Positions 5,690-24,130 of a stretch of 25,426 nucleotides of DNA are shown here, one piece after another (position 1 is the stretch's first letter; every line of letters begins with the position of its first letter). A program made the translations under genes and the position numbers. Origin of the DNA: Candidatus Harrisonbacteria bacterium RIFCSPLOWO2_02_FULL_45_10c (GTDB taxonomy: Bacteria; Patescibacteriota; Minisyncoccia; UBA6257; 02-FULL-45-10c); assembly GCA_001818705.1 (NCBI GenBank), contig MHJM01000010.1, forward strand, positions 1-25,426, written 5' to 3'. Below the pieces are notes generated by a model. The model saw only the letters and a list, made by a program, of their open reading frames with translations, was not told the origin of the DNA and made no database searches.

Positions 5690-5825
5690 GCTACCTATCT
5701 TTCGTGCGGCAATTTCGGAGCTCGGAAAAGCATGGTCTCCGCAAAGCGGAGTTTTCCGAGCGAGATATAGGAACGCCCCACCGCAGGAGTGGGGCGATTC
5801 CGGTGCCGGTAGGAAGATAAGTAGC
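5690..5825 (+). repeat. Structured element family B, copy B1
   Basis: Closing stem 5690-5703/5812-5825; conserved GTGCGGCAA, GCATGGT, GAGATATAG and CCGGTGCC. A 52-nt block matches B4 with 2 mismatches. Confidence 0.92.
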
Positions 5826-5834
5826 GAGCGACTA

Positions 5835-5863
5835 TTGACCTTAATTTTGAATTGTGGTATTCT
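5835..5863 (+). promoter_or_regulatory. Sigma70-type promoter
   Basis: TTGACC-17 nt-TATTCT with TG upstream of the -10 box; 10 nt before the ATG at 5874. Confidence 0.65.
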
Positions 5864-5873
5864 TTTATCAATT

Positions 5874-6923
5874 ATGAATGTCAGTGTTTCCAAGATAATT
5901 ACCAGCCTCCTTGCGGGACTTGATGCTAAAAAGCGTGAGGTTATCGAAGGCCGCTACGGGCTAAGGGATGGCGAGCAGAAAACCCTCGCTGAATTGGGAT
6001 CAAAATATGCCGTAACCAGAGAGCGGATCCGCCAGATTGAGGCAGGCGCTTTTGAAGACTTGCAGGCGGTCGCCGGCAAGAGCGCCGAAATCGGCCAATT
6101 CGTTAATTTGGTGAAGACCCATATTAAAAATATCGGCGGCGTTCGCCGGGAAGTTTTGCTTTTGAGCGATCTTAGAGCGATGATTGGCGATCCGAATACC
6201 GCTAATTTGAGCAGCAAGGTCAAGCTGATTTTGGAGGTGGCGGGAGAGCCGAAGTTTTGCTCGGATGGCCGGGAATTTCATTCTTACTGGTATTTAAACG
6301 AAGAGGACCGGAAAAAGGCGACTACTTTAGTGGCTAAATTAGCCAATTGGCTAAATGGCCGGAAAGACCAAGAAACCATCAGCCATGAAAAAGTAGACTC
6401 CTTTTTCAATGAGGCGATCAAGCCGCATAATTTGAAAGATCTGGTGGCCCTTAATTACGTTTCCATGTCCAAGCTTTTCCACGTCAATCACTTCGGAGAT
6501 TTCGGGCTTTCGGAATGGCCGAGCGTGAATCCGCGGACCGTCCGGGACTGGGTATATTTGGTTTTGAAAAAGCACGCCAAGCCGGCGCATTTTGAAAATA
6601 TCGCGGCGATGATCAATAAAGTCCGGAAAGATTCCAAAGTGGCCCATCCGCAAACTGTTCATAATGAACTTATTAAAGACCAGCGGTTTATTTTAGTGGG
6701 CCGGGGAATGTACGGTTTGAAAGAATTCGGGCTAATGCCCGGGACTGCCCGGGAAGTGATGTCCCGGCTATTAAAACAGCACGGTCCGCTTACTCCGAAA
6801 GAGCTTTTGGGATTGGTTCTGAAAGAACGCCTTTTGAAAAAGAATACGATTCTTATTAATCTGCAGAACAAGAAATATTTTAAACGCCTGGAAGACGGGC
6901 GCTATACTTTGCACCTCGTCTAA
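5874..6923 (+). CDS. Sigma70 region-4 HTH protein with C-terminal winged-helix (HARE-HTH/RNAP delta-like) repeats
   Basis: N-terminal RYGL...KTLAELG...VTRERIRQIE is a sigma 4.2 helix-turn-helix. No region 2 seen. C-terminal TVHNELIKDQRFILVGRGMYGL and FKRLEDGRYTL. Start moved to the ATG at 5874. Confidence 0.75.
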   Translation: MNVSVSKIITSLLAGLDAKKREVIEGRYGLRDGEQKTLAELGSKYAVTRERIRQIEAGAFEDLQAVAGKSAEIGQFVNLVKTHIKNIGGVRREVLLLSDLRAMIGDPNTANLSSKVKLILEVAGEPKFCSDGREFHSYWYLNEEDRKKATTLVAKLANWLNGRKDQETISHEKVDSFFNEAIKPHNLKDLVALNYVSMSKLFHVNHFGDFGLSEWPSVNPRTVRDWVYLVLKKHAKPAHFENIAAMINKVRKDSKVAHPQTVHNELIKDQRFILVGRGMYGLKEFGLMPGTAREVMSRLLKQHGPLTPKELLGLVLKERLLKKNTILINLQNKKYFKRLEDGRYTLHLV

Positions 6924-6990
6924 TCTCGGCGGCAACAGTCGGTCGTCTAGTTCATTTTGTTCTTTTAATAATTAGCCTTAAAATAAGTAT

Positions 6991-21519: not shown

Positions 21520-22935
21520 ATGGCAATTTACCGGGTTGTGTTTTGGAGTGGCACTGCATTTTTATCCGGCATACTGCTGGCCAGCATTAATCGGCCGCTG
21601 ATTGCCGGCATTGCGATTTTTTCCGCTAGTACTGCCATTATTTATTTTTTGTTCCGCCGGAATTTTCTTTTTGGTTTTCTGGCGCTTGGCATTATTGCCG
21701 GCGTTTTTTATTATCGGGCTTTTGAGCGCATTCAGATGAATTCGGTTTTGATTCCGTTCGGTACGGAGAGTGAGATTCGGGGATTGGTAATTGAGCGGGA
21801 ATTGCGCCCATCATCGCAACGAGCTGTTGTGGAACTTACTGATCCCTGGCGCGGGAAAATTCAGATTACTGCCAGGCGATATTCGGAATTGAATTATGGC
21901 GATATCATAACCGCGCAAGGCGCAATCGATCCATTGGTTCCGGAACGGGCTGATTATTTTTTAAAAAACGGAATTTTCGGCACCATGGATTTTCCGGACA
22001 TCGCTGTTTCGGAATCCGGCAAAGGCAATGCCGTTAAATCGGCGCTTTTGAATATTAAAGACAAGATTGTGGCGACTTTTAATAAAGCATTACCCGCGGA
22101 CAAAGCGGCGCTACTGTCCGGCATCACGCTCGGTTACCGGAGCGATTTTTCCAAAGAACTGACGGAACAAATGCGATTAAGCGGCACGACTCATCTGACC
22201 GCGCTTTCCGGATATAATATTATGGTCATTATCTTGGCAGTAACCGCCGTCACCGGCAGGTATTTTTCCAAAAATCTTTCGTTCCTTATTACGGCGGCAG
22301 CGGTCGTGCTATTTGTCATTATGGCCGGCGCTGAAGCATCCATTGTCCGCGCGGCCATTATGGGCGTTATCGCGGCGGTGGGAGAGCGGTTACAGCGGCT
22401 TCGCAGCGCCGATGCCGCTGTTATGGTTACGGCCACGGCGATGGTTTTATTTAATCCGCGGCTGCTGGTTTTTGACCTGGGATTCCAGCTTTCCTTTTTG
22501 GCGTTATTGGGGATTATCTATCTTAAGCCGGCGCTCCAAAATTTTTTTAAAAGCAATCAGCCAGGCATTTGGTCCTGGCGGGAAAATGCGTTTACGACTG
22601 CCGCCGCGCAATTGGCGGTCGCGCCGCTGATTTTGGGAACCTTTGGAACTTTTTCCTTAACCGCGTTATTCGCCAATGTTTTGGTGCTGGAAGTGATACC
22701 GATAACGATGGCGTTGGGATTTATCATCGGCGGGGCGGGATTTCTGTCCCAATTTTTAGCGGGCGTCGCCGGTCTTCCGGCCAGTATTTTTCTTGGTTAT
22801 GCCCTTTGGGTTATCGGTGTTTTCGCGCGCTTTACTTTGCCGATAACCGTGGCAGCAATGCCGATAGCGTTCGTATTTTTATATTACGCCTTACTGGCAG
22901 GATTTATACGCAAATATGCAAAAGCCGCCTTATAG
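21520..22935 (+). CDS. comEC: ComEC/Rec2 competence channel (OB-fold plus Competence domain)
   Basis: GTTHLTALSGYN, ASIVRAAIM, DLGFQLSFLA and ANVL motifs. Confidence 0.93.
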   Translation: MAIYRVVFWSGTAFLSGILLASINRPLIAGIAIFSASTAIIYFLFRRNFLFGFLALGIIAGVFYYRAFERIQMNSVLIPFGTESEIRGLVIERELRPSSQRAVVELTDPWRGKIQITARRYSELNYGDIITAQGAIDPLVPERADYFLKNGIFGTMDFPDIAVSESGKGNAVKSALLNIKDKIVATFNKALPADKAALLSGITLGYRSDFSKELTEQMRLSGTTHLTALSGYNIMVIILAVTAVTGRYFSKNLSFLITAAAVVLFVIMAGAEASIVRAAIMGVIAAVGERLQRLRSADAAVMVTATAMVLFNPRLLVFDLGFQLSFLALLGIIYLKPALQNFFKSNQPGIWSWRENAFTTAAAQLAVAPLILGTFGTFSLTALFANVLVLEVIPITMALGFIIGGAGFLSQFLAGVAGLPASIFLGYALWVIGVFARFTLPITVAAMPIAFVFLYYALLAGFIRKYAKAAL

Positions 22936-23815
22936 ATTCGCAATTATTATTGCCAGCGTTTTTATTCTGACGGATGCGGCGCTGTGGTACGGAATTATTT
23001 TTGACCGGGCAATTGCCGGTCCGGAGGTTTATTTCCTGGATGTCGGCCAGGGCGACAGCTCGCTGGTACTGCTGCCGGACCGCTTTCAGCGAGTCTCGCC
23101 TTTGGCGGATAATTTTCCCCATAAGATAAAAATTCTTATTGACGGCGGTCCGCCTAACGGCAAAGTGCGAAAAAATCTGGAAAATATCTTTCCGGCCAAT
23201 GACCGCTACATTGACATGGCGGTGATTTCTCATCCTCAGCTGGACCACTTCGGCGGTTTTATAGATTTATTTGAAAAATACGATGTCGGCATTTTGGTGG
23301 TCGGACCGGCCGCCGGCAAAGGCGTTTATTGGGAAGCCTTGCGGGCGGTAATTGAAAAACGTAAAATTCCGGTTATCGTTCTTAGCGCCGGATCGACGAT
23401 TACTTATGGCGAATCGCAGTGGGAAATTATTTCTCCCGATTCCGGCGCCGCCGCGAAAGATATCAATGACTTAGCTTTAGTGATGAAGCTGGAGAGCGGC
23501 GGCATATCCGCATTGTTTACCGGAGATATTGGAGCGAATACTGAAGTAGCGCTGGCGGCGGCTTACGATATTGACGTCGATATTTTAAAAGTAAGCCACC
23601 ATGGTTCCCGTTTTTCATCCAACGGCGTTTTTCTTAAAGAAGTCAGTCCGCTGATTTCGGCAATTGAAGTCGGAAAAAATAGCTACGGCCACCCGACGGA
23701 AGACGCTTTGCGGCGGCTGGCCGCCGTTAGCTCGCAAATCTACCGGACCGATGCCAATGGCCTGATTAAAGTTGCTTATCAAAATCAGCAGCTGAAAGTT
23801 TTTAGTGAACGTTAG
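22916..23815 (+). CDS. Stand-alone ComEC-type metallo-beta-lactamase-fold nuclease domain
   Basis: FLDVGQGDS, LIDGG, SHPQLDHFGG, LFTGD, LKVSHHGS, NSYGHP and RTD motifs. Confidence 0.88.
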   Translation: MQKPPYRFAIIIASVFILTDAALWYGIIFDRAIAGPEVYFLDVGQGDSSLVLLPDRFQRVSPLADNFPHKIKILIDGGPPNGKVRKNLENIFPANDRYIDMAVISHPQLDHFGGFIDLFEKYDVGILVVGPAAGKGVYWEALRAVIEKRKIPVIVLSAGSTITYGESQWEIISPDSGAAAKDINDLALVMKLESGGISALFTGDIGANTEVALAAAYDIDVDILKVSHHGSRFSSNGVFLKEVSPLISAIEVGKNSYGHPTEDALRRLAAVSSQIYRTDANGLIKVAYQNQQLKVFSER

Positions 23816-23826
23816 CATAATCTCAA

Positions 23827-23932
23827 TAAATCCAAAACCTCTCTTCGGCTGACCGCCTCCATTAGTAAACCCTTTCAGGGTAAATAGTTCCCACCGCCAG
23901 CCCGAGTCAGCCTCACAGAGGTTTTGGATTTA
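23827..23932 (-). repeat. Element family D, copy D2
   Basis: 16-bp outer stem 23827-23842/23917-23932 and 7-bp stem GGCTGAC/GTCAGCC. Minus strand TCGGGCTGGCGGTGGGA and AATGGAGGCG are identical to D1. Apical hairpin ACCCT-GAA-AGGGT. Confidence 0.88.
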
Positions 23933-23994
23933 ATATTACAAGCGACAGATTATCCTCTTCTCCGAAACCCGCGCAAATTTATGTAATACGGCGA

Positions 23995-24130
23995 GCTACC
24001 TGTCTGTCGTGCGGCAATTTCGGACCCAGCCGGAGCTTGGTCTCGCCAAAGGCGAGTCCGGCTGGGGAGATATAGGAACGCCCTACCGTAGGAGTGGGGC
24101 GATTCCGGTGCCGGTAGGCAGATAGGTAGC
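23995..24130 (+). repeat. Structured element family B, copy B4
   Basis: 14-bp closing stem with two G-T wobbles. Same conserved motifs and same length (136 nt) as B1. Confidence 0.92.

Follow-up and report, generated by a model that had tools for sequence, protein, structure and literature searches.

Among described repeats, the Rickettsia palindromic elements (RPEs) are the closest analogue of the element analyzed here. As summarized in PMC10969869, these are palindromes of ~100–150 bp that occur in dozens of copies in a reduced genome, many of them in frame in housekeeping genes and translated, with no associated transposase. The element, which we call family B, is present in four copies in a stretch of 25,426 nucleotides (the window), contig MHJM01000010.1 (C10 below) of the 546-kb, 85% complete assembly GCA_001818705.1 of Candidatus Harrisonbacteria bacterium RIFCSPLOWO2_02_FULL_45_10c (G000). 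Family B appears to work like an RPE rather than to be a member of that group: its copies are 136–137 bp long, number 17 in the genome and lie in frame in mnmA and in a phosphoglucomutase (PGM/PMM) gene, and neither it nor the RPEs have an associated transposase. The host phylum differs, that of family B being Patescibacteria. Measured against the summary description of RPEs (PMC10969869), family B is further set apart by its three-way junction, conserved loops, strand-specific fold, module reshuffling and mostly intergenic position.

Three other groups share part of this anatomy. Repetitive extragenic palindromic (REP) sequences, with BIMEs and REPINs, are likewise short, structure-forming and strand-asymmetric palindromes with many copies, a mosaic organization and a presumed single-stranded DNA (ssDNA) substrate; REPs, however, are simple 20–40-nt hairpins that have a conserved tetranucleotide on the 5′ side and flank a cognate REP-associated tyrosine transposase (RAYT, Y1 HUH) gene. 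Single-strand origins and single-strand initiation (ssi) signals (ssoA, G4-type ssi, RSF1010 ssiA) are multi-stem elements of ~130–200 nt that fold on one strand, with variable stems and conserved loops, and the GNA/GCGNAGC mini-hairpin cap is common to ssi signals and family B (PMC13037366). Those signals occur once per replicon beside replication genes, whereas family B is scattered over the chromosome, with some copies within genes, and is not known to prime synthesis; neither hallmark of ssoA (RS_B, or CS-6 in the terminal loop) was recognized in it. Integron attC sites resemble family B in conserving structure over sequence, in using one folded strand as substrate and in having many copies with differing stems, but an attC site is a single imperfect hairpin with R and L boxes, in IntI-dependent, same-orientation tandem cassette arrays, and none of these features was seen in family B.

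We read family B as a mobile but non-autonomous palindromic DNA repeat, either selfish or at most semi-domesticated, with a fold that is selected as ssDNA. We give this whole statement a probability of about 0.6; that family B is a mobile structured repeat, whichever nucleic acid carries the fold, is highly probable. It is apparently an undescribed small repeat of the Paceibacteria, within the Candidate Phyla Radiation (CPR), and a literature search found no CPR repeat of this kind described. A covariance model built from the four window copies detected 17 full copies and one partial copy in G000 (~0.4% of the genome) and from 1 to 39+ copies in each of the 22 genomes searched from its family; elsewhere in the order, 6 of 18 families had copies. 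With a model from 83 copies, family B was detected in 48 of the 150 class genomes sampled, patchily across many families and usually with 1–11 copies each. On viral contigs, 18 pattern matches were obtained, none of which the model confirmed. A partial or rearranged copy in G000 (C35:2129–2271) keeps P6 and P1 and has a different hairpin in place of the P4–P5 arm.

A three-way junction selected on one strand

The four window copies share a three-way-junction fold. On the strand that reads GTGCGGCAA, a long closing stem (P1) carries the junction; arm P3-P4-P5 contains a conserved one-sided loop of 7 nt (GCWTGGT) and arm P6 a conserved 7-nt loop (CGCWGGA). The copies, and the parts of B1, are as follows.

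5690–5825, + strand: copy B1, intergenic, with secF on one side and a sigma-70-r4/HARE-HTH gene on the other
5690–5703 with 5812–5825, + strand: P1 of B1
5707–5711 with 5804–5808, + strand: P2 of B1
5712–5716 with 5764–5768, + strand: P3 of B1
5720–5729 with 5752–5761, + strand: P4 of B1
5730–5736, + strand: one-sided loop of B1, 7 nt, GCATGGT
5737–5751, + strand: P5 of B1
5771–5800, + strand: P6 of B1, with loop CGCAGGA at 5782–5788
11010–11146, − strand: copy B2, between divergent efp and nucleotidyltransferase genes
20297–20433, − strand: copy B3, in frame and antisense within mnmA
23995–24130, + strand: copy B4, intergenic, between a metallo-beta-lactamase-fold gene and rmuC

The covariance-model scan of the window returned exactly these four copies. 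Together with a re-reading of the letters, it bore out the positions, strands and 136–137-bp architecture proposed in a first-pass annotation, which had been made by a model from the sequence alone; the four P4 stem sequences given there were also all correct, with B2 P4 holding one A·C and one T·G. The aligned copies span ~137 nt, within which the conserved single-stranded blocks GTGCGGCAA, GCWTGGT, GAGRYRTAG, CGCWGGA and CCGGTGYC are separated by stems unrelated in sequence. RNAalifold on the four copies gave 51 pairs, 34 of them with double changes, and the folds scored z-values of −5 to −9 against shuffles of each copy. The GTGCGGCAA strand was favored over its complement by 3 to 22 kcal/mol in every copy (B1, −71.9 against −68.6; B2, −82.4 against −74.5; B3, −73.5 against −51.6; B4, −85.5 against −68.8 kcal/mol).

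For the larger structure statistics we used 81 distinct copies from ~30 genomes. Standard pairs filled 97.1% of the predicted pair cells, compared with 30–46% when the partners were slid, and 94% of the stem cells were Watson–Crick. Double changes were found in 49 of the 51 pairs, and the covariation score was 0.87 against ~0.11 for the control, a value reached by 0 of 500 shuffles; the covariation noted in four copies thus held in a larger alignment. Each stem occurs in 42–65 distinct variants, internally paired (P1 alone forms 65 sequence clusters among the 81 copies), and the most conserved parts of the element are its unpaired loops and junctions. The covariation had been called complete, but the signal is partly a product of whole hairpin modules shuffled between copies, so that independent compensatory events are fewer than the cell counts suggest. 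A junction helix pairing YCGG with CCGG, also proposed in the first-pass annotation, never covaries. A helix of AYTYC with GRYRT, which competes for the same bases, does covary, with a conserved pyrimidine–pyrimidine mismatch. The flanks show a purine at −1 and +1 and frequent GA/GA at the base of the stem, which reads as a tandem G·A extension of P1.

The imperfect pairs show which strand is selected. Among them, G-T outnumber A-C by 134 to 27, and 59 copies lean to G-T compared with 4 to A-C; the strand bias first seen in the window therefore holds in many more copies. When copies were classed by the direction of their flanking genes, the ratio of G-T to A-C was 40:7 in the 22 copies sense to host genes and 55:6 in the 32 antisense copies. 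In G007, where replication direction was read from a 608-kb contig with dnaA at the minimum of cumulative GC skew, the ratios for the two replication orientations were 32:4 and 12:4. The fold is thus selected on one strand only, the GTGCGGCAA strand, and the polarity is a property of the element, not of host transcription or replication. Because the polarity is independent of both directions, the selected single strand belongs to the element and not to a host mRNA; were host read-through mRNA the selected form, antisense copies would show the opposite bias. Nor is mutation bias the cause, since the asymmetry holds in both replication and both transcription orientations. Selection on one single-stranded fold, RNA or ssDNA, had been proposed from four copies, and the 134:27 bias, blind to host context, bears this out. 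Family B is a clear example of strand-specific structural selection for which neither host transcription nor replication accounts.

Insertion into genes and palindromes, and exchange of hairpin modules

CPR/Patescibacteria genomes are among the smallest and most streamlined known, and family B nevertheless sits inside essential genes. Most copies are intergenic. Insertion sites include the spaces between genes, the tips of other palindromes and surface loops of proteins; in the last of these, copies are in frame and are translated in either orientation. The window features that bear on insertion and replacement are these.

19894–21117, + strand: mnmA, host gene of B3, with Pfam tRNA_Me_trans HUP, PRC-barrel and C-terminal domains
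10954–10979 and 11161–11186: arms of a 26-bp perfect inverted repeat with B2 in its apex
23970–24139: B4-holding segment swapped in strain contig L224, with imperfect inverted flanks at ~23955–23969 and 24140–24153

B3 lengthens a loop in the MnmA HUP domain by ~46 residues (~135–180) and splits the Pfam tRNA_Me_trans match at residue 134. Another in-frame copy lies between domains I and II of PGM/PMM, in the same antisense reading frame as B3. The MnmA loop is also filled with the element in G008, G001 and G020, in G007 in the opposite orientation, and in two other families in G158, where it is the only copy detected, and G171. At least three GTDB families thus include genomes with a filled loop, and the loop of other relatives is short and empty. 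Apart from mnmA, genomes with a single copy showed no conserved gene neighborhood. Family B in these genes is a natural case of nucleic-acid fold selection overriding protein-coding constraints. At B2, by contrast with such true in-frame copies, the overlap with the open reading frame at 10971–11930 is a start-codon artefact, as the NTP_transferase domain starts at residue 83. In practical terms, the repeats break assemblies, create false long open reading frames and inflate protein lengths in CPR annotations.

Further inverted repeats of at least 12 bp enclose 11 of 118 copies, compared with 0.3% in controls. In G001, four copies (L108:6213, L189:12190, L190:7977 and L192:8023) each lie within a perfect 25–28-nt inverted repeat, and this composite of outer palindrome and family B is possibly itself a repeated unit.

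Hairpin modules pass whole from copy to copy by short-patch gene conversion via the conserved linkers. Forty pairs of copies share P4-P5 but not P6, compared with 7 that share both; 12 of 13 multi-member P6 types are common to genomes in different genera (GTDB). Copying of the outer stem from the host flank is not supported for family B, as the same P1 type can be found at loci with no relation to each other and in more than one genus (GTDB). Four copies in G009 combine one near-exact P2-P5 module with three different P6 modules and different P1 stems. The aligned DNA of genomes of the same genus is ~66–79% identical.

Strain contigs, taken from other samples and having identical neighboring proteins and flanks identical to the window, reveal the same processes within populations. 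The L208 version of B1 has its internal loop and P5 in common with another G000 copy (C23:1750–1908), with which it shares an exact stretch of 67 nt, compared with 27 nt for the window's B1, indicating short-patch gene conversion. In L206, a GC-rich hairpin of 46 nt is inserted at 5808/5809, the unpaired joint between P2′ and P1′ of B1; blastn-short gave no match for it in the rest of the G000 assembly. L224 has an unrelated 96-nt sequence in place of the 170-nt segment that holds B4, between flanks that are identical for hundreds of bases, and part of the replacing sequence matches another repeat (G000 C20:3258–3300). An independent metagenome contig carries an identical B4, and this copy is therefore no artefact of assembly. 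Five strain contigs all carry B2 unchanged. Seven strain contigs that span mnmA each encode a 407-aa MnmA, the same length as in the window, which indicates by gene length that the insert is present in all seven. Copies are therefore gained, replaced and rebuilt in present-day populations, and this turnover (replacement, module exchange and nested insertion) is visible in unculturable organisms. The first-pass annotation had offered family B as a new structured RNA or a mobile module. The in-frame gene insertions, strain-level replacement and module exchange carry the second of these; a free-standing RNA gene is disfavored by the evidence considered below.

DNA or RNA, and what might move the element

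The only freely variable loop of family B, the tip of P5, provides a second and independent strand-specific signal. Triloops make up 50 of the 78 distinct tips. Of these loops, 26 are GNA, 21 of them closed by C-G, compared with one TNC, which is GNA on the other strand; the exact motif GCGNAGC occurs 14 times and never on the other strand. C-G-closed GNA triloops and the GCGNAGC mini-hairpin are exceptionally stable in DNA (PMC13037366; PMC3201870), whereas for the GCGAAAGC form an RNA version of much lower stability, with a melting temperature of 39 °C, is reported, and the RNA hairpins of that study were in general considerably less stable (PMC13037366). The tip points toward ssDNA and not RNA. 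With no conserved promoter or terminator, copies in both orientations and inside genes, and DNA-type triloops, the evidence leans toward mobile DNA with an ssDNA fold over a free-standing RNA gene. For the narrower choice of DNA rather than RNA as the selected strand, we put the odds only somewhat better than even.

Mechanistically, the three-way-junction fold would have to be intact on one strand, most likely of DNA, for the element to propagate. The selected form may be ssDNA, as an intermediate or an extruded state during copying or insertion, and a structure-specific enzyme acting in trans, from the host or from an unbinned element, may recognize this fold. Insertion would favor unpaired spots of folded DNA, and copies that lose the fold would make no further contribution to new copies or conversions, which would explain an intrinsic polarity that takes no account of host context. 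Should the fold prove to be one of DNA, family B would be a rare natural complex functional ssDNA structure and would give a handle on DNA movement in these bacteria.

Several results weigh against this reading. No enzyme was found among the Y1_Tnp, TnpB and reverse transcriptase candidates, none of which tracks presence or copy number of the element. Y1_Tnp (PF01797) was matched in 13 of 41 relatives, but not in genomes with 13–31 copies: no match was obtained in G007 (31 copies, 99% complete), G001, G009 or G021. The TnpB zinc-ribbon domain was not found in the five high-copy genomes searched. Reverse transcriptase (RVT_1) occurs in 13 of 41 relatives without correlation with the element, and was not found in G000, G009, G010 or G021 (at least 10 copies each). 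The HUH (TnpA/RAYT) and reverse transcriptase genes, whose co-occurrence the first-pass annotation had raised as worth a check, thus do not follow the element among the 41 relatives. No target-site duplication of at least 3 nt accompanies the copies. No clean empty site was obtained for any family B copy, B4 being replaced and not simply absent, and empty-site comparison within one genus gave no exact junctions, as the genomes are too diverged (66–79% identical DNA). A classical terminal-inverted-repeat transposase is unlikely because the P1 sequence is not conserved. Orientation also varies between genomes. In G007 the strand with the G-T pairs is the lagging-strand sequence in 21 of 29 copies (21:8), and copies are 16:4 antisense to neighboring genes; the same replication-orientation count is 10:7 in G000, 8:8 in G012 and 6:6 in G001, giving 45:29 with G007. 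A simple IS200/IS605 lagging-strand-template model therefore does not fit. Finally, the GNA triloops and the G-T bias bear on DNA only indirectly, and the conserved junction, tandem G·A motifs and loops are equally suited to RNA.

The only Y1_Tnp-like gene of G000 (C22:5189–5434; L091:1246–1926, minus strand) encodes 226 aa with a partial PF01797 match. A 22-nt inverted repeat lies over its 5′ end, and no family B copy is nearby.

Described classes and general trends were also considered and rejected. A REP/REPIN–RAYT system does not fit, as the Y1 gene is not found where the repeats thrive (G007, G001, G009 and G021). A palindrome-associated transposable element (PATE) derived from IS200/IS605, or a TnpB omega-RNA remnant, is countered by the lack of TnpB in the five genomes and by strand bias, which runs the opposite way in G007 and is not seen in G012 or G001. 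A classical DDE miniature inverted-repeat transposable element does not agree with 65 P1 clusters among 81 copies and no flanking direct repeat of at least 3 nt. RNA of a retron, diversity-generating retroelement or group II retroelement was set aside, as no reverse transcriptase is linked: RVT_1 occurs in 13 of 41 relatives, and searches of G000 and of several high-copy genomes did not find it. No Rfam 15 RNA family matched at or near the gathering score. A general replication-orientation bias was dropped, since the 21:8 of G007 was not reproduced in G000, G012 or G001.

Of the alternatives, an element acting at the RNA level fares best, though we consider it doubtful. Family B would then be a set of multi-copy small structured RNAs, with a gene or cis module in each copy, or a retro-mobile substrate with an RNA fold. 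A three-way junction with conserved unpaired nucleotides, tandem G·A motifs and a conserved pyrimidine mismatch would be at home in such an RNA, as would very strong covariation that tolerates G·U-type wobbles; 6 of the 78 P5 tips are GNRA tetraloops, and some high-copy genomes do contain reverse transcriptase genes. The P5 tip is nevertheless dominated by triloops and has no UNCG tetraloop (0 of 78), and no reverse transcriptase was found in G000, G009, G010 or G021. The copy flanks, which carry almost no information, showed no positional signal for a promoter or terminator belonging to the element. As P1 itself shows the wobble bias, any RNA must start outside the element, where nothing is conserved. 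The 55:6 polarity in antisense copies excludes host read-through RNA as the selected form, and copies lie in frame inside genes in both orientations. With Rfam 15, the whole window yielded only tRNA-Lys at 469–539 at gathering thresholds, and a permissive E-value around B1 gave only chance-level matches far below gathering; the earlier statement that family B fits no known RNA class agrees with these scans.

A bolder version of the ssDNA reading, which we hold as speculative, is that a strand-specific three-way-junction ssDNA fold with a mini-hairpin cap spreads without a transposase of its own through host replication and repair, by tip insertion and short-patch conversion, and perhaps also serves as an ssi or hairpin-promoter signal on taken-up or transferred DNA. 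If true, family B would represent a novel form of mobility and the first case in nature of a functional DNA fold with several helices scattered over a chromosome.

It is improbable that family B is instead an ssDNA signal used by the host, such as a priming site, hairpin promoter or recombination or architecture site on chromosomal, transferred or taken-up DNA, and kept because it helps the cell. Its anatomy resembles that of single-strand origins and ssi signals (~130–150 nt, several stems, strand specificity, conserved loops and variable stems), and the mini-hairpin motif of P5 also occurs at the G4 complementary-strand origin, RSF1010 ssiA and N4 hairpin promoters (PMC13037366). The fold is kept even inside mnmA across genera. 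The window also encodes a VirD4/TraG-like coupling protein (T4SS-DNA_transf, TrwB_AAD_bind), whose gene follows a DUF8128 gene, the pair lying at 6991–9884, and ComEC (DUF4131 and Competence) at 21520–22935; with these genes, ssDNA-handling machinery is encoded near the repeats. Two thirds of the class genomes sampled yielded no copy, however, and among close relatives the number varies from 1 to 39+; this patchy presence and copy number make an essential host role unlikely. The orientation of family B relative to replication is inconsistent, and B4 is replaced by unrelated sequence in a strain contig.

An ordinary double-stranded palindrome, its arms kept by template-switch "palindrome correction" and gene conversion with no single-strand selection, would account for hairpins that move whole as modules and for stems that are 94% Watson–Crick, but is very improbable. 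A symmetric process of this kind should yield as many A-C as G-T pairs and as many TNC as GNA loops, where the counts are 134:27 (G-T to A-C) and 26:1 (GNA to TNC). Mutation bias is excluded by an asymmetry present in both replication and both transcription orientations, and conservation is highest in the unpaired loops and junctions.

Other repeats beside the copies

The intergenic space of the genome is packed with nested palindromes of several kinds. Directly beside B4 (window 23827–23932, with 27-nt arms at 23827–23853 and 23906–23932) and beside B1 (5495–5669, with 15-nt arms at 5554–5568 and 5600–5614) are further families of palindromic repeats. A different repeat family again fills the efp leader, as an element of ~269 nt with 18-bp terminal inverted repeats at window 10673–10941. 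This element is absent from strain contig L200 (ERZ4903137), the flanks of which are otherwise identical, and is thus polymorphic for presence and absence; in L200, only ~31 nt separate the called efp and nucleotidyltransferase genes.

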